The notes under the pieces: model-generated | What the model saw: only the letters and a program-made list of their open reading frames with translations | Told to the model about the DNA's origin: nothing | Database searches by the model: none | Part shown: piece by piece, positions 37,103-58,403 of the stretch | Position numbering within the stretch: the stretch's first letter is position 1 | Layout of the letters: the number at the start of each line of letters is the position of its first letter | Program-made: the position numbers and the translations under genes | Virus record (IMG/VR): IMGVR_UViG_2795386114_000001 | Coordinates: 1 to 64,000 of that record | DNA length: 64,000 nt | Reading direction: 5' to 3' (one strand) | From: a virus | Lineage: Duplodnaviria > Caudoviricetes

Positions 37103-37150
37103 TCGCCCGTGCTCCTGCACTCCCCGCGCCCAGAGCTGGTGATTCGTGCG

Positions 37151-37172
37151 GGCCACTGTTGTGTGGCCGTCC
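37151..37172 (-). promoter_or_regulatory. Leader hairpin GGAC-GGCCAC-ACAACA-GTGGCC (copy C)
   Basis: One of three covarying copies; 48 nt before the peptidase start. Confidence 0.75.
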
Positions 37173-37263
37173 CTCAGGCGGTGATGCAGGGGCGCGGGCG
37201 GAGGGTCGCCCGGCTGATCTCAGGCTAAGGCCTGCCGGGAACGGTGTTCCCCCTGTGGTGTGG

Positions 37264-37485
37264 TTACTGGGGTGCGGGCGGGAGGGGCGTGACGGGGAAC
37301 AGCTGCTCGTGGCGTTCGGCGTTGGTGGAGGTGACGTAGTCGACGTTGTCGAGGAGCCACTGCTCGATGTGGTGGGCGAGGGCGGTCTCGTCGACCTGCG
37401 TGTATTCGGACTGCACGTTGACGTACACGCGGACTGGGTCGGCTTCGCCGTTGCCGTTGATGAGGGTGTAGGGGTACTCGGCCAT
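37264..37485 (-). CDS. Small tail-associated protein
   Basis: MAEYPYTLING...; follows the tail-fibre gene. Confidence 0.55.
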   Translation of the reverse strand: MAEYPYTLINGNGEADPVRVYVNVQSEYTQVDETALAHHIEQWLLDNVDYVTSTNAERHEQLFPVTPLPPAPQ

Positions 37486-37487
37486 GG

Positions 37488-40139
37488 TCACGCTACTTTC
37501 GTCAGGCGGATACGGGAGTCGGTGTAGAGGGTGGTGGCGGTGGCGTTGGCGCCGCCTTGGGCCCAGCGCAGAGCGAACGTTCCGCCGGTGCTGCTCACGC
37601 GGAGGGTGCCGCGGACGATGACGCCGTAGGCGTTGGTGGAGACACCGCCGTAGACGCGGGTGGCGGCGATGTCTGTCGTTTCGGTGCGCACCGTGTAGCC
37701 CCAGGGGCTGGTGACGTCCTGCTGGGTGCCGTTGGAGGCGGTTCCGGAGACGACGGTGGTTCCGTTGCCGAGGCCCATCCACTCGCCGGCCGCGCCGGAG
37801 GGGGTGCTCCAGCCCATCTGGAAGTCACCGGGACCGCTGTACTTCAGCCAGCCGTCGATCTCGTAGATGGCGTTGGCGTCGACAGTGAAGGTGATCTGGG
37901 TGTCGTTGGTGGGGGTGGTGGTGTTGGTGCGGGTGTCGTCGGTGCTGCGCCGCTTGCTCTGGAATCCTCCGGTGCCGGCGACAGTGAGGTTGCCGTCCTT
38001 GTCGACGGAGAACTTGGAGACGCTGTTGACCAGCAGGTTCAGCAGGGTTCCGGTGTGTCCGGTGGCGGTGTTGACGTAGAGGGCGGCGTTGGAGGAGGCG
38101 GGCGGGTACACCTCGAGGCGCCCGTTGGTGAGCTGACCGCGGCCTGCTTCCACGATGAAGATGTTGTTCTGGCTGGAGTTGTCGGCGTTGATGTAGCTGA
38201 CTGATCCGTATCCGGAGCGCAGGTCGATGCGGCCGCCGATGGGCAGGCCGGTACTGGAACGGATGCGCTCGATGACAGCGAAGTCGTTACCCATGAAGGT
38301 GCGCCACTTCATGTCCGTGTAACCGGATCCGGTGAAGGTGCCGCTGTTCATGCCAAGGTCGGCTGCGCCTGCGGTGTTCTCGGAGACGTTGATGACGGCG
38401 CTGTTGGTCTGCGCGGCGTTAGTCATCCGCAGGTTGGGGTAGGTGGCGTCGGGGTCCAGCCACAGGACTGCTCCGGTGGTGCCCTGGACGAGCAGGCCGC
38501 GCTCGGAGAGTTCACCGATGGCGGTGGAGATGACCCCGTCGTAGACGAGGACTTTGTTCGCGGCGGACTCGTTGATCGTGATGCGGGCGCCCGAGGCGGC
38601 GGTCTGGAGGAGGGAGCCGGTGATGGTGCCGCCGGTGATGGTTTTGCCGGTAATAGCGTCCGCTGCCAGTGCGGTCGCGTCGACTGCGCCCGCTGAGATT
38701 TTGGCGGCGGTGATGGCGCCGTCGGCGATGTTCACCGCGTTGACGACGCCGGTGGGGACGGTCTCCAGGGTGACCTGGTCGACCTGCATGGTGCCGCCGG
38801 AGGTGGAGCCGATGAGGAGGCGTACCAGGGGGCGGATGTAGCGGACGCTGGTGTGGAGCTGTCCGGGGGCTTTGGGGTCGGGGCACGCGGTGATTGTGCC
38901 GGTCGCGGCGGTGCCCTTGGCGTAGCCGGTGACGGTGGTCCACGTGGTGCCGACCGAGACGGTGAGGTTGGCGGCGGCGATGTAGTGCTGGTTTGCGATG
39001 AGGTTGGCGCCGGTCTGGTTGACGCGGGTGGTGCCGTCGGCGGCGATGCCGGTGAGGCCGATGTACACGGTCGGTGTGCCGCTGACGGGGGTGACGGTGG
39101 TGCGGATGCGGGCGGTGACCTTGTACAGGGCGTCGGGGTCGAAGGGGGTGTTGGTGGTGCGTTCCAGGGTGGTGCGGCCGGTGGCCTGAATGACGGTGCT
39201 GCCCGCGCCGGCGTCGGTGACCCCGGTGACGACAGCCCAGGCGCCGGTGTCGGTGGGCTGCGTCCACAAGGTGGCGTCGCCCATCGCGTCGGTGATCTTC
39301 TGGGAGATGGAGTCGGCGATACCGACGGTGAGCTGGTTGGTGCTGATGGCCCCGGCTGCGACCTTCCCCGCGATGACCGAGTTGGCCGCGAGCTTGTCGG
39401 AAGTCACGGCGAGCGCGTCCAGCTTGGCGGTGGTGACCGCACCTGCGGCAATCTTCGACGCGTTGACGGCGTCGGTGTCGATCTGCGCTGCCTGCACGGC
39501 TGCGGCCACGATCTTCGGGGTGGTGATGGCGTTGTCGCTGATCTCCGTGGTTCCGATCGCCCCGACGGCGACCTTCGCCTGGGTGACCGCGTCGTCGGCG
39601 AGCTTGACGGTCGTGATGATGCCGTCCACGACATCGTCCGCGACAACCGGTGTCGGCTCCGTCGGCCCGACGATCCTTGACGGGGTGGAGGCCGTCCCGG
39701 AGGTGTTGCGGGCCACCAGCAGCACGTAGACGGGTTCATCGCACGCGACGACGGCGGTGGCGCCCTGCGCGGTTTCGATCGTCGCCTTCAGCGTGTCCGC
39801 GCCCGGCGTGTACGACGCGAGCGGGGAGACGTGGACTTCCGTGCGCTGCCAGTCCAGCGGCACCACTGCCCCGTCGGCGAACTGGCCGTCCCAGGACACG
39901 GTGACCCCGTTGATCATGCCGGTCACGATCGGGTCGGACGGCTGCGGCGGGGGCGGCCCGTTGACGATGTTCACCGCGGTCGTGCCGTCGGCCTGGACAC
40001 CGAGGAGGCCGCGCAGGCTTCCGTCGCCGTCGCGGACTTGTACGGCGGTGTTGTCGATGCTGGCGTGGGAGAGGCGAGCGGAGTTCTCCAGACGCTCGAG
40101 GCGCGCCCGCATGGACGCGAGTTCACGGCCGATGTCCAT
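37488..40139 (-). CDS. Minor tail / tail fibre protein
   Basis: FnIII-like segment, repeated ITT.KI.A.A motifs, carbohydrate-binding-like module. Confidence 0.8.
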   Translation of the reverse strand: MDIGRELASMRARLERLENSARLSHASIDNTAVQVRDGDGSLRGLLGVQADGTTAVNIVNGPPPPQPSDPIVTGMINGVTVSWDGQFADGAVVPLDWQRTEVHVSPLASYTPGADTLKATIETAQGATAVVACDEPVYVLLVARNTSGTASTPSRIVGPTEPTPVVADDVVDGIITTVKLADDAVTQAKVAVGAIGTTEISDNAITTPKIVAAAVQAAQIDTDAVNASKIAAGAVTTAKLDALAVTSDKLAANSVIAGKVAAGAISTNQLTVGIADSISQKITDAMGDATLWTQPTDTGAWAVVTGVTDAGAGSTVIQATGRTTLERTTNTPFDPDALYKVTARIRTTVTPVSGTPTVYIGLTGIAADGTTRVNQTGANLIANQHYIAAANLTVSVGTTWTTVTGYAKGTAATGTITACPDPKAPGQLHTSVRYIRPLVRLLIGSTSGGTMQVDQVTLETVPTGVVNAVNIADGAITAAKISAGAVDATALAADAITGKTITGGTITGSLLQTAASGARITINESAANKVLVYDGVISTAIGELSERGLLVQGTTGAVLWLDPDATYPNLRMTNAAQTNSAVINVSENTAGAADLGMNSGTFTGSGYTDMKWRTFMGNDFAVIERIRSSTGLPIGGRIDLRSGYGSVSYINADNSSQNNIFIVEAGRGQLTNGRLEVYPPASSNAALYVNTATGHTGTLLNLLVNSVSKFSVDKDGNLTVAGTGGFQSKRRSTDDTRTNTTTPTNDTQITFTVDANAIYEIDGWLKYSGPGDFQMGWSTPSGAAGEWMGLGNGTTVVSGTASNGTQQDVTSPWGYTVRTETTDIAATRVYGGVSTNAYGVIVRGTLRVSSTGGTFALRWAQGGANATATTLYTDSRIRLTKVA

Positions 40140-41242
40140 CACAGGCTCCCGTAGTGGTACATCGAGGCGGGCTTGAGGCTGACGACGGCCTGCGGGCCGC
40201 CCCGGGCGGTTGGCTTGATCGTCCATCCGGTGACGCGGCACCAGCCGGTGTAGGACGTCCACGCGTTGTGGATGCGGGTGTAGATGTCGTCGCCGACCTG
40301 CCACGCCCCGAACGGTGCGGCGTCGGTGTCGCGCAGAACGACCTGTTCGACGCTGCCGAGGGTCTGCCGCCTGGCCCGCTCCCATGCGACGCGGTCTTTG
40401 AGGACGTCGTTGCCGTTGATCTCCGGGTACTGCACGGCGGCCTCGAGGCGGAGGCGGCCGTTGCGGACAGCGGAGATCTGCCTCAGTTTCGCGCTGCCGT
40501 CACCGGCACCCGTCCCGATCACGACCTGCGCGTAGTCGTCACCGGAGAGGATCTCTTCGGGTTCTTCGATGATGTTGACGCCGGAAGAGAACGTGATGTC
40601 GGTGCGGCGGGTTCCCAGGCGTGGCCAGCCCAGCTGGATGCGTTTGATGACGTCGGTCTTACCCGTGTTCCAGGCGGTGGTGCACGTGTACTCGGGGGTG
40701 GCGTTGTCGGAAACGAGTTCGTCGACCTGGTCGCCGAGGCTCTTCGTGTCGTACCAGTAGGAGTGGTACTCGTCGCCAGGCACGCCGACCTTGGAGGTGC
40801 TGGTGGTGGTGTCGACGATGACGCCGAGGTCACCGTCGGGAACAGATTGGGCGTACTCCCAGATGTTGCGGATGACCTCGCAGCGGTCCGTGTACACGTA
40901 GGGGCCGCGGCCGCCGTGCTCGCCGTCCAGGTCGAAGCGGCGTTGCAGGTACGACGACCAGGAGGCGGCCTCGAGGCTGTAGTCGTTGCCGGAGGATCGG
41001 ACGTCCCAGATGAGGCCTCCCCACTGGATCTGCCCCTCGGATTCGACGTAGATGGCGGTGGTGCCGGGGTCGACGGTGGCTGGCTGGGAGGCGATCAGGC
41101 GCGGCGACAGCTTCCCCGTCAGACTGCCGGGCCCGGACAGTTCCGGCCCGTACTCCAGTTCCGTGACCGGGAGCGCGGTCGCCAGCCAGTCCCCGGTGAG
41201 GAGGTTCTGGGTGAGGACCCGGTCCGGGATGGGCTGGGTCAC
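40139..41242 (-). CDS. Minor tail (hub/Tal-like) protein
   Basis: WGGLIW...LGWPRLG...GTGAGDG; post-Dit position. Confidence 0.75.
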   Translation of the reverse strand: MTQPIPDRVLTQNLLTGDWLATALPVTELEYGPELSGPGSLTGKLSPRLIASQPATVDPGTTAIYVESEGQIQWGGLIWDVRSSGNDYSLEAASWSSYLQRRFDLDGEHGGRGPYVYTDRCEVIRNIWEYAQSVPDGDLGVIVDTTTSTSKVGVPGDEYHSYWYDTKSLGDQVDELVSDNATPEYTCTTAWNTGKTDVIKRIQLGWPRLGTRRTDITFSSGVNIIEEPEEILSGDDYAQVVIGTGAGDGSAKLRQISAVRNGRLRLEAAVQYPEINGNDVLKDRVAWERARRQTLGSVEQVVLRDTDAAPFGAWQVGDDIYTRIHNAWTSYTGWCRVTGWTIKPTARGGPQAVVSLKPASMYHYGSL

Positions 41243-42174
41243 CGGGGTGCCTCTTCGAACTGCACGTCGGCGACGAGGGTGGTGCCGGAGTCGACGTAGA
41301 TCCGTCCGGCCTGTCCGGAGGCGAGGCCGGCGGCGCGCACGCGCAGAAGCTGGGTGGTGTTGCGGTAGGCGGAAGGCAGGGTGAGGGTGTCGGCCATGAT
41401 GGCGGCGATACGGCGGGCGCCGCTGCCCTGGTTGTCGTCGAGGGTGGTGGGCTGCACGGACAGGCTGGCGCCGAACGTGGCGCTGATCTGGCCGTAGAAG
41501 TTGCCGAGGTCGTAGCGCAGGGGGCTGACGTCGATCTTGATGATGGCTTTGGTGGCCCAGTCGGGGATGGCGATGTTCCACCCGGCCGCCGTGCTGAAGT
41601 AGGAGTAGCTGGTGCTGCTGCCGATGCCGCTGCTGATGCTGGACGGTGACTGGGTGACCAGGGTGCGGGAGCGGCGCGGATTGGCGCACTTCCGCAGGTC
41701 GGTGATCATCGCGTTAGTGATGGTCCCTGTGGAGGCTGGGATGTCGATGCGCGCCAAGGGGATACCGGTGCCGGTCGGAACCGTAGTCGCCGAAGATGAG
41801 ACGTTCGATAGGACATCAATGAAAACGATCTCGTCGGTTGCCGGGTTGTGGCTGTATCCGTACTCGGGATCCTCAACGCGGACGATGACCATGTCCGAGC
41901 GCGGTGTGGCCCCAGTGGCCGCAATGTCAACGTTGATGGACCCGACGTTGCATGCGGCGTAGTGGCCTTGGAAGGTGTTGTCGCGCCCTTTGATGACACC
42001 CGAGCCATCGCCCACGGTTACTCCACCGCCAGGCGTCGATCGCTGCGTAACTTTCAGATCGTCGCCCTGAGTAATGCCCTCCGCCCCGTTGGCGAGGTCG
42101 CGGACCAGCATGCGGAACTGCTGCGCGGAGTGGGTGGCCCCGTTGGTGAGGATGGGCGCCGGGAAAAAGGCCAT
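41239..42174 (-). CDS. Minor tail/baseplate protein
   Basis: RSDMVIVRVEDPEY...IPLARIDIPAST.TIT..MITDLR. Confidence 0.75.
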   Translation of the reverse strand: MAFFPAPILTNGATHSAQQFRMLVRDLANGAEGITQGDDLKVTQRSTPGGGVTVGDGSGVIKGRDNTFQGHYAACNVGSINVDIAATGATPRSDMVIVRVEDPEYGYSHNPATDEIVFIDVLSNVSSSATTVPTGTGIPLARIDIPASTGTITNAMITDLRKCANPRRSRTLVTQSPSSISSGIGSSTSYSYFSTAAGWNIAIPDWATKAIIKIDVSPLRYDLGNFYGQISATFGASLSVQPTTLDDNQGSGARRIAAIMADTLTLPSAYRNTTQLLRVRAAGLASGQAGRIYVDSGTTLVADVQFEEAPR

Positions 42175-42186
42175 TGCGGCTCTCCT

Positions 42187-43089
42187 TCAGAGGGCTATGT
42201 AGGCGTCGCGCCAGGTGACGCGCAGGCGGGACGAGTTGGTGTTGTCGAACGCCGTCCACCGCATCTCCGATGTGCCGGGCAGCAGGCTGAACAGGTCGAG
42301 GCGGCTGCCTGGGGAGAGGTAGGTGGTGGCGTTGCCACCGTTGTCCCAGGTGACGGTGCGATAGCCGGGCCGGGTGTCGATCTGCACCCACCGGCCTGCC
42401 GTCAGGTTGAGGGTGGGCAGGGCGAGGGCGCGGCCGGTGGCGACGTTGGTGATGGTGACGTTGGCGCACGGCCCGGTGATCCGCAGGATCGGCCAGGCGG
42501 GCGCATCCCCTTCGTTGGTGACCCAGCCGGGCCGGTCCGCGGCGACGGTGCCGTCCTGGACGTAGATCGGCGCCACGACTGGGGCGGCGAAGCCGCCGCC
42601 GGTCAGCCAGCCGAGAGGCAGCTCGGTGACGGACTCCTCGTCCGCGTAGAACGTGGGGTCGTGGGCGAGGAACTCCATGTCCAACGGCACGTAGCCGTGG
42701 ATGACCTGCCGGTACTCCGGCTCGAGCTTCCGCGCCCGTACCGTGAGCCGCTTGACCGGCCGTCCGGGGCGCTTGAGGCGGAGCGCCATGCCCTGACCTC
42801 CCAGCAGGCGTACGGCGGCCGGGTCGGTGGCGGCCTGGAGAGCGGCGACCATGTCGTGGCAGGCGTCCGGCTCGCCGGGGATGCGGATGGCGGCATCGAT
42901 CTGGATCTGCCTGCCTGCCCAGTAGTCGGGTCCGGCAAACTGGCCGTCCATGGACGGCTGGTCGACATCGGAGTCCCTGACCGGTGGACGGCCGAGCCCG
43001 GTGGTCTCGATCACCTGCACGTTGGTGCCGGCGCCGATGAGGACGCCTCCGACGTCGTACTGCCAGTCATCGAGCTCAAGCAACGGCAC
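42187..43089 (-). CDS. Distal tail (Dit-like) protein
   Basis: Directly after the TMP; F.AHDP.FY, NEGDAPAWP...GP, L.PG.SE. Confidence 0.8.
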   Translation of the reverse strand: MPLLELDDWQYDVGGVLIGAGTNVQVIETTGLGRPPVRDSDVDQPSMDGQFAGPDYWAGRQIQIDAAIRIPGEPDACHDMVAALQAATDPAAVRLLGGQGMALRLKRPGRPVKRLTVRARKLEPEYRQVIHGYVPLDMEFLAHDPTFYADEESVTELPLGWLTGGGFAAPVVAPIYVQDGTVAADRPGWVTNEGDAPAWPILRITGPCANVTITNVATGRALALPTLNLTAGRWVQIDTRPGYRTVTWDNGGNATTYLSPGSRLDLFSLLPGTSEMRWTAFDNTNSSRLRVTWRDAYIAL

Positions 43090-46000
43090 GAGCGTCCACT
43101 CCTCCCCTGCGGGCCCGGCGCACACTGCGGCCGACCTGGAATCCGATGTCGGATGCGCTCGCCCCGGTCCGGACGGGGGTCACGGTGACCTGGGTGGTGT
43201 CGCCGGAGCGGACGATGACGATGGGCCTGCCGGCTTGCGCGTCGGTGAGGCCGACTCCGAAGCGGCTGGCGACGTCCCGCAGGACGGGCAGCGCGGTGCG
43301 CCGCTTGCTGGGGCTGAGCGGCAGGTACGCCTCTCCGCCGGTGGAGGGCTCCGCGAAGCGGATGATCCCGGCCCGGGTCGCGTACATTCCGGCGCGGATG
43401 CCGCCGTCCGCGTACGCCATGTGCCGGTTGGCTTTCGTCAGGTCGGCGAGGAAGCGGTCGGAGCGCGGTCCAAGACTGGACTGGATCTGCCTCTTTGCCT
43501 TGTTGGCGACGTCGATGATGACGTCCTCGCCGAGCCCGGTCTTCGCGGCGACGTCGTGGATGCCGGTCTTGCTGGTGGAGATCGCGGCGATGATCTGCAC
43601 CAGGTCGGCGACCTGCTCGGAGGTGAGGGCCTTGTTCGCGGTCTTGGCTTGCGTGTTCGCCGCTCGGGCCTTCTTCTTGTCCTTCACGGCGGCCGCGGCG
43701 AGTTGCTGGGCGGCTTCGTCGTTCTGGCTGGCGAGCTGGGCTGCGAGGTCGCCGTAGCCCTGCGCGGCGAGCTTGGCGAGGTTGTCGGAGAACGTTTTGT
43801 TGACCTTGTTGGCGCTGGTCAGCTGCCGCGTGTAGTCCGTCAACGATGCCTTGGCGGTGGCCTGGAGGTTCCTGAGGGCCTTGGACATGTCGTTGATGTA
43901 CTTCGTGGAGCCGGTGGCCATCTTGTGGGCGAGTTTCATGCCGTCCTCGCCCATCGCCGCCAGCGCTTGTGCAACGTCGCCGCCGACGCGGTCGGCGACC
44001 TTCTCCAGGTCCTTGTTCCAGGCTTGGGTGGCTTTCGAGGCGCTCTTCAGCTTCTTCTCGACGGCGCCGAGGTCGAAGTACTCGACTTCCTTGGTCGTGG
44101 TCTTCTTCCCCTTGACCTTGACCTTCACTTTCTTGGTCTTGTGGCCGGCCTGCCCGGCATCGGAGGCGCTGTAGAGGGAGCCGGTGCTGGGGTCGTAGCG
44201 CCAGTCGGTGACGTTGCCGTCGGCGTTCCACTGGATCCCGCGCGGATCGCCGCCCAGACGGCGCACGATCTCCTCGGTGATGGCGCGGGAGCGGGGCCGC
44301 GCAGACATGCGGAAAGGCACGTATCCCTCGCCCTGGGTCTCCCGCTCCCCCCAAACCCGGTAGGAGCCCGCCTGGGTGATCTGCGCGATGTGCTGGTTTG
44401 GCCTGTCGCCCCGCTCCATGCCTCCCCCGGCATAGGCGCGGATGCCGCCGCGGGCGTAGAAGTCCAGGACGTTGCCGCGGGAGTTGGGCGTCACGCCCGG
44501 GTACTTCTTCCCGTCCACCGCGCCGGTGCGCACCGTGTTCAGGTATTCGGTCTTGTAGATGCCGATGCCGATGGTCTTGCCGTGCATCCCGTTGATGGCG
44601 CCCTGGATGGCGCTGACCGCGGAGGTGGGCGGACCGGTCGGGATGGTGATGGTGACGTTCTTCGATCCCGGCACGTCCCGGATCTTGAAGCCGAGGGCTT
44701 CCAGCTGCTTGCGGGCCTCCGCGGTCGGCGCCCGCATGGTGATGGTCTTGCCGTTGGTGGATCGGATCTTTCCCTGAACGGCTTCCAGGTCCTTGATGGC
44801 CGCGGCGGTCTTGGCATCGACCTTCACCGCCTTCCCGCCCGGCGTCTGGGACAGCTTCGTGATGAGAAGGTCCAGCTGGTCACGGGCGGCCTGCGTCGGC
44901 GCTGTGATCTTGTATTCGCGGGTGCCGGGAATCAGCTGAATCTTGTAGCCAAGGTCCTCGAGTTCCCTCTTCGCCTGCTCGCCGAGCGCATCAACGGTAA
45001 TGGTCTTCTTGTCGGGGAACTGCTCGAACTCCGCCTGCACGGCCAGCAGCTCGGCCAGGGTCGCGTCGACACCTTCCGTGGACAGCAGAATCGACACCTG
45101 GCCGGGGATCAGACCCAGGGAGTCGGCTACCTTCCCGGCCTGCTTCTCCGTCATGCCGTAACCGGTCATCAGGTCGATGGCCGCGTCCCGGCTCTTCTTC
45201 ATCTCCCCGCGGGCGGCGGCCAGCGACTCGGGCAGGGTCTTGCCCTGAGACTGAGCGAAGTCGTAGGAGGCGATCGCGGCCTGCGCGGACCCGTCGGAGA
45301 TCGTGTTCAGGGTGTTGAAAAGCTGCTGCCCGTTCTTGGTGGTGGTGTTCAGGGTGCCGTTGGTGTTCAGCAGGGCCTTGCCCCAGCCGTCCGCGTGGTC
45401 GATGCCTTCCTTCAGCGCCTCGTTGGCGTTGGTGATGGCCTCGTTGACGCGGGCCTGCGCGGCCTGCAAGGACACCGAGCCGCCGGAGAGGAGATCCAGG
45501 GCGTCGCGCAGGGCGCGGGTGCGGGAGTCGGCGTCCGCGGTCTTGTCGGCGAGCGCGGCGACGGCGTCCTTCAACCGGCTGTAGGCGGACACTCCGTCGC
45601 CGGTGCCCTTGGTGGCCGAGTCGAGGTCCTTGGCGTTCTTGGCGGCCGTCTTGGCGTCGCCGGACATGCTGCGCAGGGCCTTGGCGGCGCCGGCGTAGGC
45701 GTTGGCCTTGTCGAGGATCGCCTTGCGGTCCTTGTCGCCGCGACCGGTCTCGTTGAAGGCCTGCGCCTGCTCCTTGGCCAGGGCTTCCATCTTGTCGGCG
45801 AGCTTGTCGACGCTGTCGCCCTGGCCGAGGTAGGAGTCGGTGAGGTCGGACAGGGAGTAGCCCTGCTTGGCCATCACGTCGGCGAGGGTCTGGCCCGTGT
45901 TGGCGAGCTTGGTGTTCTGGATGGTCTGGGCGGCTTGCTGGCGTACGTTTTCGTCGATGGCGCCGTTGGACTGGCGCATGGCCTGCGTAAGTCCGTCGAT

Positions 46001-48352: not shown

Positions 48353-48385
48353 CGGCCTGCCCCTCCCTTCCTTGTGTGGTGTCGG

Positions 48386-49302: not shown

Positions 49303-49401
49303 GTGGGGTGTCCTTGGTCAGGGGGGCGGACCTGGCCGGGCGGCAAACGCCCTTCCCGAAGCGTGTACGCCCGGCCAGGAACTGAGGGGACGGTGGGCGG
49401 G

Positions 49402-50202
49402 TCAGCCGCCCGGCGTGGTGGTGGTGACGGTGACGGCCGGGCTGGTGCCGCCCGTCAGGCCCGCTGCGGAGGCCGTCATCTGCGGGACGTCCTCGCCGTC
49501 GTAGGCGCCGCCACCGAAGTTCACGGTGACCGGCGTGCCGGGCAGGGCACCGCCGGCGCAGGTGACGTCGCCGACGGCGATGTTCGACAGCGCCTCCAGT
49601 GCGGACTGCACCGCGGACGCGGCCGCGTTGTAGGCGATCCCGGACGTTGTCTGGCCGGAGAAAGTGAGCGTGAACGTGCCGCCCGTCGGGGATCCGGTGA
49701 TGGTGACCGTCTGAACCTCGTCGGTGCCCGCCGCGGGGACCGGGGCACCCTGAAGGGGGCGGGAGGTGATGGAGCACGTGGCCATGAACTTGGCGGCCTC
49801 GTTGTCGGCGGTGTACTGCGGCGACAGCGACGCCACCCGGATCGGGAAGACGTCCATGCTGTTGTTGGCGGGGACGTCGCCCTTGCGGAGGATGACCACG
49901 TAGCCCGTGGTGCCCTTGGCGAACGTCTGCTCCAGGGTGGCGGTCTCCTCGTCCTCGTAGAACGTGAACGAGGAGGAGTCGGCCTTGTCGGAGCCGGGGA
50001 TGGTGGAGTCGTAGGTGTCCGCCATGTTCGGCGTTTCGATCTCCTGGTTGGTGACCGTCCAACCGTCCATCGCGGCGATGTACTCGGAGAACTCCGTGCC
50101 GGCGTTCAGCTCGGAACGGGTGGGGATCATGTTTTCGGCGGCGATCGTCGGCACGAAGTAGAACTTCGACGTGCCGCGCCGCATGTACTTCTTGACCGGC
50201 AT
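49402..50202 (-). CDS. Major tail protein with C-terminal EVQTVTITG.PTGGTFTL extension
   Basis: FYFVPTIA...PTRSELNAG...; position after neck genes. Confidence 0.88.
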   Translation of the reverse strand: MPVKKYMRRGTSKFYFVPTIAAENMIPTRSELNAGTEFSEYIAAMDGWTVTNQEIETPNMADTYDSTIPGSDKADSSSFTFYEDEETATLEQTFAKGTTGYVVILRKGDVPANNSMDVFPIRVASLSPQYTADNEAAKFMATCSITSRPLQGAPVPAAGTDEVQTVTITGSPTGGTFTLTFSGQTTSGIAYNAAASAVQSALEALSNIAVGDVTCAGGALPGTPVTVNFGGGAYDGEDVPQMTASAAGLTGGTSPAVTVTTTTPGG

Positions 50203-50275
50203 TCGTGGGCCCCTTGGTCCCGGGGCCTCCCGTCTGGTGCGGGCCCGGCCCCTTACACGGTGGTGTATGGGTTCG

Positions 50276-50297
50276 GCCACCTGTTGTGGTGGCGTCC
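50276..50297 (-). promoter_or_regulatory. Leader hairpin GGAC-GCCACC-ACAACA-GGTGGC (copy B)
   Basis: One of three covarying copies; 73 nt before the MTP start. Confidence 0.75.
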
Positions 50298-50340
50298 GCG
50301 GAGGGGTCCCGCCGCGGTGCGGTTGTTCGCCTGACGCGGG

Positions 50341-50790
50341 TCAGGCGCTGTTCACTTGGAAAGCGAACCTGCTGGCACTGCTCATGATTCCATCGGTTGG
50401 GTCGGGTGTTCCCCCCACCTCGATGTCGGGCCGTCTGGCGATGACCCTGATGCCCGGCGGGTTTAGTTCGTGGAGCCATCTGCGGGTGGCCGGGTCACGG
50501 CCGAGGATGACCTCGCGGGCCTTGTCCTCCAGCCACTCCAGCTGGTCCTGGGTGCCGTAGGAGTCGGGGTCGCTGGGGTCGGGCCCGGATACGGCGGTGA
50601 CCTGGTAGACGAGGGTGGCGTCTTCGTTGAGGTCGGTGTAGGGAGCGCCGTCGGTGTTCCGGTCGACCCGCCACAGGATGTAGTAGCTGGCGGGGTTGCC
50701 GTCGGGGCGGCGCCCTTTGCCGACGGGTTTTCCGCTGCCCGCGGCGAGCATGGCGGCCAGCGCGTTCGTGAACACCCGTGTTTTGATCAC
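50341..50790 (-). CDS. Tail terminator/completion protein
   Basis: Position before MTP; YQVTAVS. Confidence 0.65.
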   Translation of the reverse strand: MIKTRVFTNALAAMLAAGSGKPVGKGRRPDGNPASYYILWRVDRNTDGAPYTDLNEDATLVYQVTAVSGPDPSDPDSYGTQDQLEWLEDKAREVILGRDPATRRWLHELNPPGIRVIARRPDIEVGGTPDPTDGIMSSASRFAFQVNSA

Positions 50791-51173
50791 GCGAGGACCT
50801 CCGCGACCGCGAGCCGCATGCTGGCCATCAGCGTCGTCTCGATGAACGGCAGGGCGGGCTGCACGTGGGGGAAGGGCGGCTGGTTGTAGTGGCGGCCCAG
50901 GCTGTCAACGCCTACGAACCCGAACTCGAGGCGGCGCCCTTGGGGGGCGTCGGTGGCCAGGGTGCATATCGCGCCGTAGGGGATGCGGCGGGTGTGGGTT
51001 TGCCAGGAGTTGCGGTAGGCGCCGGTGATGACGTTGGGTCCGGGCCGTCCGGAGGCGTTGCCGCGGATGCGGGCCTGGCCGAGGGTTCCGGCGTGTTCCA
51101 CGCCGCGGGCGATGGCCGGGCCGATGCGGGTGGCTGCGTGCTCGAGCTTGTCGGCGAGTTCGTCGGGGGTCAT
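50787..51173 (-). CDS. HK97 gp10-like neck protein
   Basis: PNVITGAYRNSW...RLEFG...QPPFPHVQPA. Confidence 0.8.
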   Translation of the reverse strand: MTPDELADKLEHAATRIGPAIARGVEHAGTLGQARIRGNASGRPGPNVITGAYRNSWQTHTRRIPYGAICTLATDAPQGRRLEFGFVGVDSLGRHYNQPPFPHVQPALPFIETTLMASMRLAVAEVLA

Positions 51174-51619
51174 GGTGTGCTCCCGCGGGCCTGGTTCTGG
51201 TCCAGGGGGGTGATGCGGACGGCTTCGATGGTGGCGGCCCGGCCGGGGTCCTGGCAGATCCACGACCGGCCGATCAGGGCGGTGTTGGCCGGGTTGTGGA
51301 CCTGCACGACGGTGACGATGGCGTCCTTGGGTGCGAGGGGCGCGGTGAGGGGGGTCAGGAGCCGGAAGCGGGACTTGGTCTCCTGGATCCACGGCTGGAG
51401 GGCGTTGGGGGTGGCTGAGATTTCCGACTGTGCGGTGCCGCCCTGCACGGCCCCTGGCCCTTCGTACAAGACGTCGCCCTGTGGCCGGGTCAGCTCGCCG
51501 GTGTCCTCGTTGAGGATGGGATCGCCGGTGGCGGGCAGTTCGATGCGCACGGTGTCCAGGAGGATGTTCTTGCCGATCCACGCGGCCACCGAGGCGAGCA
51601 CAGCGTCGAGGCCGGCCAT
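51170..51619 (-). CDS. Head closure/completion protein (DUF6093-like)
   Basis: LLDTVRI...TG......VLYEGPGAVQ. Confidence 0.7.
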   Translation of the reverse strand: MAGLDAVLASVAAWIGKNILLDTVRIELPATGDPILNEDTGELTRPQGDVLYEGPGAVQGGTAQSEISATPNALQPWIQETKSRFRLLTPLTAPLAPKDAIVTVVQVHNPANTALIGRSWICQDPGRAATIEAVRITPLDQNQARGSTP

Positions 51620-51999
51620 CAGGTCCTCCCCTGGGCCCAGTCGGCGATCTGCTTCAGGACCGCTTCGGTGATCTCATGCTTCTCGCCGGACAGGTCCGTA
51701 CGGTCGAGGGCGGCGCGCTGCACGGCGGCCGGGTCCAGTCCGAGAACGAAGTCAGCGACCGCCTGCCCCGGATCCTGCGGTGCGGCGACCGCGACGCGTG
51801 CGAGACCTTCCCAGATGACGCCTTCGGGCTGCCGCGTGTGCAGGACCAGCATGGGCAGAGCGTCGGCAATCGAGTGCTCCAGCTGGTAGCCAACGACCTG
51901 ACCCGCAGGAAGGTGGGCGCCGTCGATGCTGATGGCGGCGTGGCCGGGCTGGGCTTCGATGCGGACACCGTGGGCAGTCGGCTCGCTGGGAGTGCTCAT
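51619..51999 (-). CDS. Hypothetical head-module protein
   Basis: Coupled at both ends in the head operon. Confidence 0.6.
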   Translation of the reverse strand: MSTPSEPTAHGVRIEAQPGHAAISIDGAHLPAGQVVGYQLEHSIADALPMLVLHTRQPEGVIWEGLARVAVAAPQDPGQAVADFVLGLDPAAVQRAALDRTDLSGEKHEITEAVLKQIADWAQGRT

Positions 52000-52841
52000 A
52001 TGGGGTCTCCGGATACGAGGCCGCGTCGGTTATTGAGGTCGGGGCGGGGGATCCACTGGCGTATGCAGCCGTGGTGAGCGACGGGGTAGGCGGCTGCGTC
52101 GTCGGCTGAGCGGATGGTGCCGCTGGCGTGGTCGGTGTCCTGATGGGAGACGAATCCGCACTCCGGGCCGTCCACGCACTCAAACCAGGCGGCCTGAAGG
52201 TCCAGCGTGCCGGTGTTGATGGCGCCGTGGTTGGCGGTGACGACGCCCTGGTAGGTGAGCGCGGAGCGCGCCCAGTCCTTCACCGGATGCCGCGCGTTGT
52301 TGCGGTAGACGATCGTGGACAGCGGATGGTCGGCCGCCAGGCGTGCGGAGTCGATGCCAGCATGGTTGCGGCCCAGGGTGACGTCGCGGGCCGCGCTCTG
52401 CGCTGTCCGGGCGAAGGCCTGCGCTCGGCGTACGGTCTCCTGGATGCGGCCGATGAGGTCGGTGTAGAAGGTGGCGGTCAGGGCGGTGATGGCTGCCTGA
52501 TGGTCGGTGGTCCACCGGAAGAGGCTGATGTCGGCTCCGGCCTGCCGGAGGGCGCGCTGGGCGCCGTCGCGGTAGGCGACGGGCAGGTCCTGGGCGGCCC
52601 ATCGTTCGGCCAGGGCGCGGGCGAGGCGGTCGAACTCGCCGACCTGCTGGTTGAAGCTGGCGATGATGAGCCGGATGCGGGTGGTGGCGCCGAATCCGGG
52701 GCGCAGGCGTTCGAGAAGGCGCAGCAGGTTGTCCTGGGCGGTGGCCAGGCGCTGCCAGTGGCGTACGAGTTCCGCGGTCATCACGGCGATGAGGGCGGTG
52801 AGTTCGGCGCGGCCGTTGTCCTGCTGGACGGGGGTGGTCAT
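51996..52841 (-). CDS. Minor capsid / MuF-like protein
   Basis: ECVDGPECG...H...YPVAHHGCIR.W.PRPD (HPxC-like MuF C-terminus). Confidence 0.7.
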   Translation of the reverse strand: MTTPVQQDNGRAELTALIAVMTAELVRHWQRLATAQDNLLRLLERLRPGFGATTRIRLIIASFNQQVGEFDRLARALAERWAAQDLPVAYRDGAQRALRQAGADISLFRWTTDHQAAITALTATFYTDLIGRIQETVRRAQAFARTAQSAARDVTLGRNHAGIDSARLAADHPLSTIVYRNNARHPVKDWARSALTYQGVVTANHGAINTGTLDLQAAWFECVDGPECGFVSHQDTDHASGTIRSADDAAAYPVAHHGCIRQWIPRPDLNNRRGLVSGDPI

Positions 52842-53176
52842 CGGCGGGGCCGTTCAACGAGGTAGAACACGCCGAGCTGGGGGTCGCTGCTTGTGGTGTC
52901 GGCGGGGTCGTCGGGGGCGGGTGAGGCTCCGGCTTCCAGGAGGGCGATCTGCCGTTCGTAGGCCTTGATGTTCTCGACGTAGGACACCGAGACGACGCTG
53001 GAGACGTTGATGGTGGAGGCCTGTGCGCGCAGGTCTGCCAGTCGCTGGTTGAGGACTTCGAGGGCGACGGCGCGTGCGGTGCCGAGGCGGCTGTAGCGGG
53101 CTTCCAGGTCGGCGGTGTTGGTGTCGGTGCCGAGCTGGCCGGTCAGCCAGGCTTGTACTGCCGTGTCCAGGGCCAC
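52838..53176 (-). CDS. Head-tail adaptor
   Basis: Position after the MCP; GGAGGA RBS. Confidence 0.6.
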   Translation of the reverse strand: MALDTAVQAWLTGQLGTDTNTADLEARYSRLGTARAVALEVLNQRLADLRAQASTINVSSVVSVSYVENIKAYERQIALLEAGASPAPDDPADTTSSDPQLGVFYLVERPRR

Positions 53177-53217
53177 GACGTCCTCCCGGGGGCAGGTGGG
53201 TGGGGTGGGAAGAGTGT

Positions 53218-53273
53218 GCGGGGTGCGGGCCCGCCTGTTGGCGCCCCCACCATGGGGCGGGCCCGCACCCTGC
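53218..53273. terminator. Stem-loop after the capsid genes
   Basis: GGGTGCGGGCCCGCC ... GGCGGGCCCGCACCC. Confidence 0.6.
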
Positions 53274-53641
53274 TATTCGCCGCTGGTGCCCTCGCCGGCG
53301 GCGTCCCGGCCCCGAGACCGGCTGGTGGCCGCAGTGGTCTTGCGTGCGGCGGTCTTCTTGGCCGCCGGGGCGGCCGTGTCGGAGTCCCCGGACGGGGGCT
53401 GGTCAGCGTCGCTGGACGAGTCGTCGCCAGAGGCGTCGTCCTGGTCGTCGCCGGTAGGGCCCTGGGCGCTGTCGTTGTCCTGCTTCTTCGGCAGGCGGGG
53501 CAGCTTCCCGTCGACCCAGGCGGCCGGGTTCGTCACCAGTGCCGCCAGGCGCGGCTCGGGGAGCGTCCCTTGCGCCAGTTCGACCGTTTGGTGGGTCTTC
53601 GGATCTCTCACGTACACCGTCGCTGCGAGTTGGGCGCCCAT
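53273..53641 (-). CDS. Hypothetical post-capsid protein
   Basis: LVTNPAAW N-terminal domain plus low-complexity tail. Confidence 0.65.
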   Translation of the reverse strand: MGAQLAATVYVRDPKTHQTVELAQGTLPEPRLAALVTNPAAWVDGKLPRLPKKQDNDSAQGPTGDDQDDASGDDSSSDADQPPSGDSDTAAPAAKKTAARKTTAATSRSRGRDAAGEGTSGE

Positions 53642-53644
53642 GGC

Positions 53645-54709
53645 TTACCACACCGTCGCTGCGATGTGGATGTCCGGCACGTACATGACCGGCAGCGCGG
53701 CCGCCGAGCCCTTCGTCCACACCTGCGGCGGGTCGTCCTGGTAGCCGCGGGTGACGACGATGCCGGGGGCTTCCTCCCGCTCGATGGCGGGGTTGCCGCC
53801 GGAGGAGAGGATGAGGCCGTCGGCGGTCAGGCCGTACTGGGTCTCGGCCCACTGGGTGGGGTTGGGCGGCAGGAGGAAGAACATGTTCTCCGGCAGCGCG
53901 CGGACGTCCGTGCCGTTGTCCAGCTCGATCTTCACGTCGTACGTGGTGATCGGCGGAAGGTTGTAGCGGGACCGGACGACGTTGACTTCGTTGGGAGCGA
54001 GCACCGCGGTGGGGATCGTCGACGCGGAGTTCACCGAGCCGTAGTAGGCGGCGCGGTAGGAGTCGTTGCCCATCATCAGCGCTGCCGTCTTGTACGACGT
54101 CAGAGCGCGGCCGGGAGCCGGGGCACCGGAGGCGCGCAGGACCTCGATCCAGCGCATCTCGTCGCCGAGGATGTCGGCGGTCGGGTCGGTCCAGTTCGTC
54201 GGCGCGGTCGGCCGGTTCGCCGACGGAACCGAGTAGTCGGCCTCCAGGGTCAGGCCGTTCTCGCCGACGAGGGAGAACTTGCCGTCGACGAGGAGGTCAC
54301 CGACGGCCAGCTCGAGGCGCTTCTTGATGGACAGGACGTGCGCGCCGACGTCGTCGTAGACGGCGTTGACGAGGTCGCGGCTGTCCATGCCGCGGTCGAG
54401 GCTTTCGAGGATGGTCTCGAACTCGCCGACGATGTACTTCTGGCCGAGCGGGAGGAGCTTGCCGGAGGTCGCGAACTGCGTGATCTCACGCGTGGCGACC
54501 TTGGTCTGGGCGTCCCATGCGCGGTAGGAGGCGGCGGCGATCCGGCGGCGGGTGCCGCGGGTCTCCCACTTGACGGAGTTGATGGTCCGCTCGGGCATGA
54601 CCGTGCGGGTGAGTTCGTAGTCGGCCGGCGTCTGGACTTCGCGGGCGAAGGCCTGGATTTCGGTCGGGCTGAGGTCGCGGAGCAGGAGCTCCAGCATGTC
54701 GTTCGGCAT
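53645..54709 (-). CDS. Major capsid protein (lambda gpE-like family)
   Basis: 354 aa; KLLPLGQKYIVGE, RLELA, DPPQVWTK.SA.ALP. Confidence 0.92.
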   Translation of the reverse strand: MPNDMLELLLRDLSPTEIQAFAREVQTPADYELTRTVMPERTINSVKWETRGTRRRIAAASYRAWDAQTKVATREITQFATSGKLLPLGQKYIVGEFETILESLDRGMDSRDLVNAVYDDVGAHVLSIKKRLELAVGDLLVDGKFSLVGENGLTLEADYSVPSANRPTAPTNWTDPTADILGDEMRWIEVLRASGAPAPGRALTSYKTAALMMGNDSYRAAYYGSVNSASTIPTAVLAPNEVNVVRSRYNLPPITTYDVKIELDNGTDVRALPENMFFLLPPNPTQWAETQYGLTADGLILSSGGNPAIEREEAPGIVVTRGYQDDPPQVWTKGSAAALPVMYVPDIHIAATVW

Positions 54710-54724
54710 GTCGGTGTCTCCTGA

Positions 54725-55459
54725 TCAGGCCTTGTAGACGAACTGGGTGTTGGATCCGGCCGGGATGTCGGCCGGGTCGAATGCGACGGGCAGCTTGGAT
54801 GCGTCGATCTGTCCGTGGACCATGAGCGGGGCTGCGACCTTGGTGGCTCCCGGGTGGAAGGCGACCTCGGTGAAGAGGAATCCGCGGAAGGTCTGGGTGC
54901 CGTCGGATGCGGTGGCGGTGCCACCGGCGGTGGTGGTGGCCATGGTGACGCCGGGGCTGGTGCCGCCGGTGAGGGAGGCGGTGGCGGTGATGGAGGCGAC
55001 GTTGTCGCCGAGGTACTGGCCGCCGAAGGTGAGCGTGTAGGGTCCGCCCGCGTTGCCGGTGACGGTGATGTCGCCGGGGTTGACGTTCGACAGGGCCTCC
55101 AGCGCGGTCTGCACAGCCGCCGCGGTGGCGTTGTACGCGATCGCGCTGGTGGTCTGACCGGAGAAGGTGAGGGTGAACGTGCCGCCGGTCGGGCCGCCGG
55201 TGATGGTGGCGGTCTGGACCTCGTTGGTGACCGCGGCGTACGGCTCGTACAGCCCGGTTGACGTGTTCTTGCCGAGCGGGATGCCGGACTTCAGCTTGCG
55301 GTCGGGCTGGTAGGCGGAGGCCTCCGTCCAGTGGAGGTTCTCGTCGAAGGCGGTGAGGTCGAGGGTGACGCTGACGTTGGCTTCGATGCCGAGCATGCTC
55401 ATGAGCCACGGGCGGCCGACAGCGAGCGTCTCGGTGCTGGTGTACGGCTGGATGTCCAC
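54725..55459 (-). CDS. Head decoration protein (gpD-like) with inserted EVQT.TITG.PTGGTFTL domain
   Basis: KSGIPLGK.TSTGLYEPY...[insert]...DGTQTFRGFLF...HGQID.SKLP. Confidence 0.8.
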   Translation of the reverse strand: MDIQPYTSTETLAVGRPWLMSMLGIEANVSVTLDLTAFDENLHWTEASAYQPDRKLKSGIPLGKNTSTGLYEPYAAVTNEVQTATITGGPTGGTFTLTFSGQTTSAIAYNATAAAVQTALEALSNVNPGDITVTGNAGGPYTLTFGGQYLGDNVASITATASLTGGTSPGVTMATTTAGGTATASDGTQTFRGFLFTEVAFHPGATKVAAPLMVHGQIDASKLPVAFDPADIPAGSNTQFVYKA

Positions 55460-55499
55460 GCCGTAGCCCCTTTCGCGATGTACGCGGGTGTGTGGTGAG

Positions 55500-55521
55500 G
55501 GCACCTGTTGTGGTGCCGTCC
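55500..55521 (-). promoter_or_regulatory. Leader hairpin GGAC-GGCACC-ACAACA-GGTGCC (copy A)
   Basis: One of three covarying copies; 40 nt before the decoration gene. Confidence 0.75.
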
Positions 55522-58369: not shown

Positions 58370-58385
58370 AGCTGTCCTTCCCGCT

Positions 58386-58403
58386 GTTCCAGGCCCCGCG
58401 CCT
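58386..58403 (-). promoter_or_regulatory. Late leader motif AGGCGCGGGGCCTGGAAC (portal), 7 nt after -10-like TACCCT
   Basis: Identical to 56431-56448. Confidence 0.7.

Follow-up and report, generated by a model that had tools for sequence, protein, structure and literature searches.

The 64,000-nucleotide stretch of viral DNA analyzed here (the window; IMG/VR record IMGVR_UViG_2795386114_000001, Duplodnaviria, Caudoviricetes) carries, in the 5′ untranslated leaders of three late messages, a structured element of about 55 nucleotides (nt) in which two helices, P1 and P2, are joined by an AC dinucleotide, and this P1-AC-P2 core is a real, conserved and covarying RNA-type element that has no counterpart in Rfam. 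The window represents the first 64 kb of a virus record of 92,782 bp, which is complete, has direct terminal repeats and has as its nearest named relative the Streptomyces plasmid-phage ZL12. The helices of the element, their covariation, their conservation throughout a family of pZL12-like Streptomyces plasmid-prophages, and the complementarity of upstream leader strands to the Shine-Dalgarno (SD) sequence and the start codon are described below. The architecture of the leader and its distribution are new, and its mechanism probably belongs to a familiar class, that of structured leaders by which access to the ribosome-binding site is controlled, perhaps one that is read by a protein.

The element was noticed as a hairpin of the form GGAC-N6-ACAACA-N6-C, which has three matches in the window compared with a mean of 0.05 in shuffled sequences, none of 100 of which reached three. 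The hexamer ACAACA alone is not enriched (20 found, 15 expected), and of the 22 ACAACA sites in the whole 92,782-bp record only three have flanks that are fully complementary (6/6), the other 19 reaching at most 4/6. The letters and places of these three minus-strand hairpins are as given in a preliminary description made from the sequence alone, as are the compensatory changes by which their stems differ and their location between genes, in the same orientation as the genes and at 40, 73, and 48 nt before the start codons of the decoration, tail-tube and peptidase genes, respectively. The gene identities proposed at that time are borne out by PHROG and Pfam: the decoration leader precedes the gene for a head decoration protein (PHROG 3583, 4.8e-32) followed by that for the major head protein (Phage_cap_E), the tail leader precedes the gene for the major tail or tail tube protein (Phage_TTP_16, 1.7e-44), and the lysis leader precedes the genes for a peptidase and then a LysM endolysin (PHROG and Pfam).

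The idea of a free-standing boxB-like hairpin did not survive, as the hairpin forms one helix, P2, within a larger leader and its GGAC consists of the end of P1 and the linker. In all three gene classes the GG closes an upstream helix of 5 bp, P1, the arms of which differ between the classes (Table 1) and the loop of which is C-rich and ends in CCCC, and this is followed by AC, P2 and a C, which gives a core of the form A-CC[NNN]-(C-rich loop)-[NNN]GG-AC-(P2 hairpin)-C. The order in the leader is P1, the AC linker, P2, a CA-rich linker, P3 and then the SD, where P3 is a hairpin of 4 bp located directly 5′ of an AAGGGG-type SD in the decoration and tail leaders. The leaders contain 44–47% C and 19–27% G, compared with 40% C and 29% G in the late region, and those of the window fold better than shuffled sequences, with z values of −4.0 (decoration, −4.02), −2.6 and −2.5. 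The decoration-type arrangement of P1 recurs in 50 or more distinct relatives.

Table 1. Features of the three leaders and of their surroundings, numbered from the first nucleotide of the window.
Feature	Position	Strand	Details
Decoration hairpin as first noticed	55499..55521	-	GGAC-GGCACC-ACAACA-GGTGCC-C, 55521-55499
Decoration P1	55520..55539	-	5′ arm CCACG 55539-55535, loop CCCTACCCCA 55534-55525, 3′ arm CGTGG 55524-55520
Decoration AC + P2 + C	55499..55519	-	AC 55519-55518, GGCACC/GGTGCC with loop ACAACA 55517-55500, C 55499
Decoration P3-SD-start	55457..55486	-	P3 CGCG-TACAT-CGCG 55486-55474, SD AAAGGGG 55473-55467, GTG 55459-55457
Hairpin before tail-tube leader	50329..50346	-	GCCTGAC-CCGC-GTCAGGC; overlaps stop codon of preceding gene
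Tail-tube hairpin as first noticed	50275..50297	-	GGAC-GCCACC-ACAACA-GGTGGC-C, 50297-50275
Tail-tube P1	50296..50317	-	5′ arm CCGCG 50317-50313, loop GCGGGACCCCTC 50312-50301, 3′ arm CGCGG 50300-50296
Tail-tube AC + P2 + C	50275..50295	-	GCCACC/GGTGGC, loop ACAACA
Tail-tube 3′ part	50200..50267	-	P3 50267-50254, first G-box AAGGGGCC 50254-50247, inserted hairpin, real SD AAGGGG 50215-50210, ATG 50202-50200
Lysis hairpin as first noticed	37150..37172	-	GGAC-GGCCAC-ACAACA-GTGGCC-C, 37172-37150
Lysis P1	37171..37205	-	5′ arm CCCTC 37205-37201, 25-nt C-rich loop, 3′ arm GAGGG 37175-37171
Lysis AC + P2 + C	37150..37170	-	GGCCAC/GTGGCC, loop ACAACA
Lysis 3′ part	37100..37130	-	Conserved GGCGCGGGGAG box 37130-37120, SD CAGGAG 37117-37112, GTG 37102-37100
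Predicted ECF-type promoter, lysis	37223..37253	-	GGGGGAAC 37253-37246, 16-nt spacer, CTTAGCC 37229-37223
Predicted ECF-type promoter, portal	58405..58440	-	GGGGAAC-N16-CGTACCC-TGATCA; portal GTG 58369-58367
GC-rich hairpin after tail-tube gene	49331..49379	-	Gene stop 49404-49402; no U-tract
15-bp GC-rich hairpin after decoration-capsid-next-gene block	53221..53270	-	From folding, own genome only; no U-tract

Relatives were collected by means of the tail-tube protein (13 full-length loci among 27 in species genomes and 34 among 78 in IMG/VR), the decoration protein (79 loci) and the peptidase (5 loci). Entire intergenic leaders are conserved among these pZL12-like Streptomyces plasmid-prophages at the same three gene positions, and the covariation found at these orthologous sites removes the doubt, raised in the preliminary description, that the element might be lacking in relatives. 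In 86 distinct cores the invariant positions are the A-CC at the start of P1 and the GGAC, and the P1 columns are 97% paired, with arms that differ between gene classes by compensatory changes. For P1 and P2 together, 89.9% of the cells are paired compared with 79.8% in shuffles and 31–50% in slid registers, and 94 cells are changed on both sides compared with 28.5 in shuffles (0 of 500 reach that number), with 9 of the 11 pairs carrying such a change. The pairing count for these cores is conservative, because some lysis and class-B decoration rows were misaligned by MAFFT and were counted nonetheless. Within class A of the decoration leaders alone, one P2 pair occurs as AU (25), GC (14), and CG (1), and P1 and P3 are without variation. 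The tail P2 of one relative (L188) reads GCTGCC/GGCAGC, a double compensatory change, and the lysis P2 of relatives reads GACCAC/GTGGTC, GACCGC/GCGGTC, or CGCACC/GGTGCG. There are 34 distinct P2 stems across the family, with arms of 5–9 bp, and P2 is by this comparison a predicted helix that is well supported by covariation. The loops differ in length, from 8 to 25 nt in P1 (8–18 nt in decoration leaders) and from 3 to 12 nt in P2, and the hexaloop of P2 that had been regarded as invariant is so within this genome only, since in relatives it is replaced by loops of many sequences.

A search of the whole window against Rfam 15, which for the lysis leader was the only search, gave no match at the gathering threshold, and with E values up to 10 the best matches of the tail and decoration leaders had E values of 0.12 and 2.6, with 11.7–16.9 bits compared with gathering thresholds of 39–70. 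The earlier statement that this is an RNA element not recognized is in agreement with this result. A covariance model, which had been proposed as a check, was built and finds the three sites of the record itself (60.5, 58.8, and 36.8 bits; next best 14), two to three leader sites in each of the related plasmid-prophage records plus a few weak extra matches, and a match (E ≤ 1e-4) in 24 of 151 sampled Streptomyces genomes, a tally that includes one genome (G135, locus L238) that enters no other result. Four of the 24 have several strong matches on one contig. Among the single matches are decoration-type leaders from other prophages (L227, L228, L242, L243, and L245), as well as a further class of core copies located before small chromosomal open reading frames (ORFs) of 27–96 codons. 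The tail leader is present in 22 Streptomyces plasmids of 85–94 kb in PLSDB, and the decoration leader has no blastn match among cultured phage records. Nothing was found in the literature on such a leader, a statement that does not extend to the original description of pZL12 (PMC2897331); the passages on pSLE1 or pZL12 in a further report are silent on leaders, and the term 'transcription start' is absent from its main text (PMC4487206).

In the decoration leader of the window, the lowest-energy fold contains two long-range pairings, that of CCACGCC (the 5′ arm of P1 and the first bases of its loop) to the GGCGUGG at the start codon and that of CCCC to the GGGG in the SD, such that P2 and P3 are enclosed and the paired strand lies about 60 nt downstream. 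The 5′ strand and loop of P1 pair with the SD-start region by at least 6 bp in the minimum-energy folds of 43/43 class-A and 15/15 class-B decoration leaders, and the RNAalifold consensus of these leaders is the same long-range fold. The energy of this duplex, compared with composition-matched shuffles of the 5′ strand, has a mean z of −3.23 and is below −2 in 15 of 19 non-redundant leaders (the L227 row was left out), and the longest perfect matches are of 4–11 bp compared with 3.4–5.3 bp in shuffles. Cognate strand pairs are better than re-paired ones (0 of 20,000 permutations), and in a 4-by-4 matrix of classes the cognate 5′ strand is the best partner in all four columns and in two of the four rows. 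At least four types of anti-SD and SD change together: CCCC with AAAGGGG, CCCTCTCCTC with GAGGAGAGGG, ACGCCCCTACC with GGTAGGGGCGT (11 bp, perfect), and CTTCTC (loop CCCCTTCTTCT) with the GAGAAG of the SD GAGAAGAGAGG (6 bp, contiguous). Moreover, the 3′ arm of P1 with its linker, CGUGGAC, repeats the start-codon context GGCGUGGAC, and hence P1 and the long-range helix are alternatives competing for one strand. In ZL12 the annotated GTG of gp64, the homologue of the decoration gene (L002 6333-6335), sits within the CGTGGAC of the P1 3′ arm; as judged from the conserved SD and start that lie downstream, the true start is probably located 3′ of the annotated one.

Complementarity in the tail leaders is between the P1 loop and the first G-box downstream of P3. 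Where this G-box is the SD, with the ATG 12–14 nt further on, the match GGGACCCC:GGGGTCCC is perfect, and covarying variants are CGGCCCCT:AGGGGCCG, GGCCCCT:AGGGGCC, and ACCCCT:AGGGGT. The loop and the first G-box have a mean z of −1.94, with 17 of 31 distinct pairs below −2. As P1 is found both in the minimum-energy fold of the window's tail leader and in the RNAalifold consensus of 39 leaders, and its loop pairs with the G-box, the topology would be that of a pseudoknot enclosing P2 and P3. Tail-tube leaders are of two lengths: in the short type (L207, L273, L053, L244, and L010) the first G-box is the SD, and in the window and most relatives there is an extra hairpin of about 40 nt and a second copy of AAGGGGCC, where GGCCCC can pair with either G-box. 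In leaders of the long type, none of 17 shows a signal between the loop and the region at the real start. Complementarity beyond composition is found in decoration leaders, in part in tail leaders, and neither in lysis leaders nor in the small-ORF copies, and in the decoration and tail leaders changes on one strand are accompanied by changes on the other, L160 being an exception. The anti-SD property therefore appears, from these comparisons, to be real for two of the three sites and not to be general to the core. Translational activation, antitermination and processing had all been offered as possible roles, and of these it is control of translation initiation to which the sequences of the decoration and tail leaders point most clearly, those of the lysis leader giving no such indication.

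The P2 loops seen in the family include ACGCA, AGGCA, ACCACA, ACAACA, GACGCA, ACAA, AAGA, ACTTC, and CCGT, and ZL12 itself has ACGCA before the tail tube gene, an 8-bp stem with CCGT before the decoration gene and a different structure before the lysis genes. According to a loop table that was compiled by hand with one row per record, and in which the register of the class-B decoration hairpins was chosen with some latitude, the decoration and tail loops are identical in 10/29 records compared with 1.89 expected on re-pairing (0 of 100,000 permutations reach this), and for distinct loop combinations they match in 4/23 compared with 0.57 expected (p 1.5e-4). The tail loop equals the lysis loop in 3/11 records, and one loop is used at all three sites in two genomes, this one (ACAACA) and G002 (ACCACA). 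Gene conversion is an unlikely cause since the stems differ beside identical loops, and a shared reader is the simplest idea that the sequences suggest for this identity within genomes; however, such a reader cannot be a strict requirement as the loops are discordant in 19/29 records. The protein reader that had been envisaged is favored by the matching of loops above chance, and is disfavored by these discordant records and by the absence of an RNA-binding family among the 25 of 29 families listed in the Pfam survey. This survey covered 77 non-structural ORFs, and the families encoded outside of the late region of the plasmid-prophage include WhiB (2), GerE/LuxR-type (2, one of them at 88182-88451 on the minus strand), GntR, WYL, and a Rad52-like annealing protein, together with ParA/ParB, a C5 DNA methylase, and an IS605 OrfB/TnpB-like protein. 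A trans-acting RNA partner for the P2 loop was also considered, using five complete genomes and the loops ACAACA, ACCACA (two genomes), AGGCA, and ACGCA, and was rejected, as no complement of the loops has conserved flanks other than the antisense strand of each hairpin.

These results can be accommodated, tentatively and at somewhat less than even chances, by a cis-acting leader that gates translation initiation and in which P2 serves as a clamp or as a protein handle beside the 3′ arm of P1. In the decoration leader, the 5′ arm of P1 and its C-rich loop would be the anti-SD/anti-start strand for GGGG and GGCGUGG, and the 3′ arm of P1 (CGUGG plus AC) would compete for that strand, while in the tail leader the P1 loop would pair with the first SD-like G-box to give the pseudoknot around P2 and P3. 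P2, which abuts the 3′ arm of P1 by way of the invariant AC, would influence the choice of fold, either as a structural clamp or as a handle for a trans-acting factor. The element would accordingly act as RNA, pairing would repress translation, something would relieve the pairing, and P2 would be factor-bound. A folded transcript is the natural reading, and a spaced DNA site is excluded, given the variable loop lengths, the covarying arms, the fixed orientation and the SD complementarity. An unlikely possibility is that P1-AC-P2 serves as operator for a late regulator, encoded by the phage, that binds RNA in an allele-specific manner, the loop specificity of which would co-evolve with the phage, as does that of N with boxB, and the binding of which would unlock pseudoknotted or sequestered ribosome-binding sites.

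Several observations weigh against translational gating. The lysis copy does not fit this role in any simple way: lysis leaders have no SD complementarity beyond composition (mean z −0.99, 1/6 below −2), nor does their P1 loop match the conserved GGCGCGGGG box (mean z +0.79, 0/16 below −2). Complementarity beyond composition is likewise not found in the chromosomal small-ORF copies (in one comparison, of 3 of 5 leaders). Among the decoration leaders themselves, L160 has a loop of class A together with an SD of class B (z −1.87), and the P1 loop alone has a mean z of only −0.95 against the SD, with 10/49 below −2. P1 is absent from all 58 decoration minimum-energy folds, and may rarely form in these leaders because to enforce it costs 12–15 kcal/mol over the long-range fold (mean 15.3 in class A and 12.1 in class B). 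The support for P1 comes from a few between-class changes because the arms are invariant within each class; for the lysis P1, the same invariance means that support for the helix comes from the comparison between classes alone. Wobble pairs are uninformative as to the strand of action, with 4 G-U compared with 5 A-C in the 34 distinct P2 stems, and no RNA-binding or antiterminator family is present among the 25 of 29 Pfam families listed for the 77 ORFs. Predicted folds are in addition generous in sequence of 68% G+C, and a function of P2 in its own right is putative.

Two predicted promoters of the extracytoplasmic function (ECF) sigma factor type, for which GGGGAAC-type boxes are characteristic in shape, are located before the lysis leader and the portal gene (Table 1). 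That of the lysis leaders conforms to GGGG(G/C)AAC-N15-17-CGTA(G/C)(C/G)CTGA and lies about 25 nt before P1, with a spacer mostly of 16 nt and of variable sequence; the pattern has 20 distinct matches, of which 17 are lysis leaders and the other three are unrelated. The portal promoter is found at the homologous place in all five complete genomes examined. The form shared by the two, GGGGAAC-N16-CGTA(C/G)CC-TGA(G)ATCA, has boxes that are conserved in relatives, and the same promoter type precedes the chromosomal small-ORF copies, the spacing being 16–17 in lysis, portal and small-ORF promoters. The two predicted ECF-type promoters are likely to be the late promoters of the phage family. There is no ECF-type box within 165 nt upstream of the decoration leader, and neither a sigma-70-like promoter nor a U-tailed terminator was found on the minus strand between 36.9 and 56.0 kb; the portal promoter is the nearest predicted promoter upstream of both the decoration leader (2.9 kb) and the tail leader (8.1 kb). 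A candidate promoter before the tail leader was rejected, as the GGGGGAAC that is conserved about 95 nt upstream is inside the coding sequence of the preceding gene, reads GGGGGATC in several relatives and is not accompanied by a conserved −10 box. A phage sigma factor was rejected as well: gp7 of ZL12 (annotated 'sigma-H') has no homologue here, a small LuxR/GerE-type protein does have one, at 88182-88451, and ten small ORFs that were examined yielded no regulator family. Translational coupling to the upstream gene is not favored either, as the stop codons precede P1 by 20–35 nt (decoration), about 25 nt (tail), and 59 nt (lysis), distances over which a ribosome that terminates could not itself disrupt the pairing.

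With a leader in front and a strong hairpin behind, the high-demand genes are bracketed. The inverted repeat after the tail-tube gene is complete in 31/33 distinct relatives and is cut short in the other two by the 110-nt limit of the segments compared, and in L030 it has a compensatory change of C-G to T-A. The hairpin that precedes the tail leader retains its arms CCTGAC...GTCAGG in relatives, with variable loops.

Such bracketing is what would be expected if the core were part of a module for mRNA processing or stability, in which it marks or protects the 5′ end and the downstream hairpins protect the 3′ end, such that the messages for capsid, tail tube and lysis proteins would outlive their neighbors. 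The tail-tube gene lies between its leader and the long hairpin just described, the decoration-capsid block ends with a 15-bp hairpin, the lysis copy lies about 20–30 nt after the predicted −10 box, near the expected 5′ end of the transcript, and P2 stems are kept as structures with variable loops, as expected for a purely structural protector. This reading is nevertheless doubtful, as it leaves unexplained the AC linker, the CC/GG closing pairs, the C-rich P1 loop, the covariation with the SD and the identity of loops within genomes, and no cleavage site or RNase was identified. In addition, 5′-terminal stabilizers, as known from E. coli, tolerate few unpaired nucleotides, and the unpaired 5′ stretch expected before the lysis P1 (about 10–15 nt by position) exceeds what they tolerate. 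Quite unlikely, too, is a nut/put-like processive antitermination, in which the RNA, alone or with a loop-reading phage protein, modifies RNA polymerase, which would then pass the strong hairpins of the 21-kb late region, and the several copies would reload the modification along the operon. It would account for two adjacent hairpins with a 2-nt linker, for the strong hairpins inside the late region, for the location of the lysis and small-ORF copies downstream of predicted promoters of one type, and for the loops that match within a genome, since boxB loops of lambdoid phages are phage-specific. However, the main predicted late promoter, that of the portal gene, has no element after it (the best match nearby, at 59092-59129, has 13.5 bits), the decoration and tail copies are separated from that promoter by the kilobases given above, and the tail copy follows, rather than precedes, the hairpin that ends the preceding gene. 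Hairpins of the late region may also not be terminators as they have no U-tract, loops differ in most records, and no N-, Q-, or NusG-like family is seen in the Pfam overview of 77 ORFs, where an N-like protein was sought as an antiterminator family among the 25 of 29 families listed and small arginine-rich proteins would escape detection. The roles in translation, in stability or processing, and of the nut/put type are not mutually exclusive.

A DNA-level signal, either a promoter or operator such as an ECF-type variant GGGAC...CGTGGAC or an inverted-repeat site for a dimeric regulator, is very improbable. Most relatives do have GGGA(A/C)C 13–15 nt before CGTGGAC in the decoration leader, resembling GGGGAAC-N16-CGTA promoters, and a boost in transcription before the capsid and tail-tube genes would be biologically sensible given the hairpins before or after them. 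Nonetheless, the fixed spacing of 16–17 bp of ECF promoters is not found, as the P1 loop of decoration leaders and the P2 loop vary in length and the distances between the boxes in tail and lysis leaders are quite different, and such variation in loop length argues against the recognition of spaced DNA boxes. The P2 arms covary, with 34 distinct stems and no half-site consensus, and no sigma-70-like promoter is found in the 36.9–56.0 kb region. For the same reasons, namely the lack of a sigma-70-like site and the variable GGGAC...CGTGG spacing, a T4-like promoter inside the structure was not supported, though it keeps some probability in the decoration leader, and a riboswitch was rejected as unpaired positions are not conserved and Rfam contains nothing similar. 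Finally, short GC-rich hairpins are common at 68% G+C, and a loose descriptor, in which P1 is any 5-bp helix and P2 is 5 bp or longer, picks out 5 sites in the genome compared with 4.1 in Markov shuffles; yet chance similarity or a non-functional repeat is refuted, to the point of being negligible, by the frequency of the exact motif (3 compared with 0.05 expected) and by orthologous conservation with covariation in dozens of relatives.

The element belongs to none of the known systems with which it was compared, of which the nearest functional precedents, by analogy, are the ribosome-binding-site-sequestering leaders of T4, pseudoknot operators, boxB/N and put, and the start-associated sequences (SAS) and extended SAS (ESAS) of mycobacteriophages. 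The nut sites of lambdoid phages are short hairpins at more than one site per genome, the stems of which may differ and the loops of which are phage-specific, and boxB is a short hairpin with a conserved purine-rich, GNRA-like pentaloop, whereas put of HK022 consists of two adjacent stem-loops with about one unpaired nucleotide between them and acts as RNA in cis on RNA polymerase. The present element likewise has hairpins at several sites per genome, and its two helices are joined by a 2-nt linker. It differs in that no such pentaloop is found, the P2 loops being A/C-rich, of variable length and of many sequences and discordant in 19/29 records, and in its position, which fits poorly with the predicted promoters and terminator-like hairpins, the lysis copy following a predicted promoter and the decoration and tail copies being 2.9 and 8.1 kb from the nearest one. 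Nor is P2 an intrinsic terminator, as it is followed by C(U/G)CAC.. and not by a U run. The 6C RNA of Actinobacteria has hairpins with C-rich loops that are thought to pair with G-rich, SD-like sequences, and a C-rich hairpin loop facing such a sequence is found here also; however, the 6C small RNA acts in trans and its C-rich loops are two in number, only the P1 loop is C-rich here, and the tail and decoration leaders do not match the 6C Rfam family at E up to 10.

In the leaders of the T4 genes e (lysozyme), soc (capsid decoration), 49, and I-TevI, according to the passages devoted to them in a review of the subject, an upstream strand pairs with the SD, the start codon or both and lowers translation, the purpose being that dangerous or late products should not be made from the wrong transcripts (PMC3014915). 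The decoration leader described here has the same kind of pairing with SD and start. In T4 this is relieved by late promoters inside the structure, while here none is evident inside the leader and the lysis copy is downstream of its promoter; nothing in T4 corresponds to the P1-AC-P2 core, moreover, and the sequences are unrelated. The same passages describe, in the T4 gene 32 leader and in E. coli rpsO/S15, a hairpin loop that pairs with a downstream strand and a protein that reads the fold and sets translation (PMC3014915). The pairing predicted between the P1 loop and the G-box of the tail leader has the same topology, but those operators are autoregulatory and single-copy, and the element here is located before three different genes. 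The SAS/ESAS of Cluster K mycobacteriophages are, in the part of the report that treats them, start-tied repeats with some genome-specific positions and of unknown function, about half of which have imperfect 17-bp inverted repeats with a variable spacer of 4–13 bp just upstream (PMC3203893). Both are actinophage repeats tied to translation starts, but SAS/ESAS have, as described there, a consensus in arm sequence and 11–19 copies among non-structural genes, whereas here the arms covary (34 stems) and there are three copies before structural and lysis genes. Inverted repeats of 17 bp with a half-site consensus were not found, as judged on the P2 arms, the SAS 13-mer not having been searched for.

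The control of late genes in actinophages is poorly understood, and pZL12-type plasmid-prophages are common in Streptomyces. The leader is a testable handle on the stoichiometry of their proteins and on the silence of lysis genes in the carrier state, would add an RNA family, and could serve as a compact, orthogonal expression part for the engineering of Streptomyces, while the predicted ECF-type late promoters are the first candidates for transcription signals in this family of phages. Were P1-AC-P2 indeed the operator of a late regulator, it would represent a translational 'late switch' that keeps the decoration, tail-tube and lysis proteins silent in the plasmid state, and the core and promoter found before chromosomal ORFs for putative small membrane proteins would mark a wider regulon.

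The small-ORF copies on Streptomyces chromosomes (L223, L224/L246, L232, L233, and L212) have P1-AC-P2 with a P2 of GACACC/GGTGTC, and at these loci an ECF-type promoter is followed about 70 nt later by the core and then by variable ORFs starting with M-x-R-D. Two of the longer products show, by eye, hydrophobic C-terminal stretches, and one copy, located 895 nt from one end of a chromosome, occurs again at the opposite end. Within the window, the portal leader (58385-58410, minus strand) reads ATCACAGGCGCGGGG, and the lysis leader (37120-37215, minus strand) reads ATCAGCCGGGCG followed by P1-AC-P2 and its linker and then GGGCGCGGGG, so that the lysis core has the appearance of an insertion, with a GGGCG repeat on both flanks, into a simpler leader. 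Just upstream of the portal promoter, in an intergenic region (58390-59020) that is unusually A+T-rich, there is a perfect palindromic stem of 13 bp, GGGCGCACGTTCC/GGAACGTGCGCCC (58465-58492, minus strand), which could be the terminator of the terminase unit or an operator.

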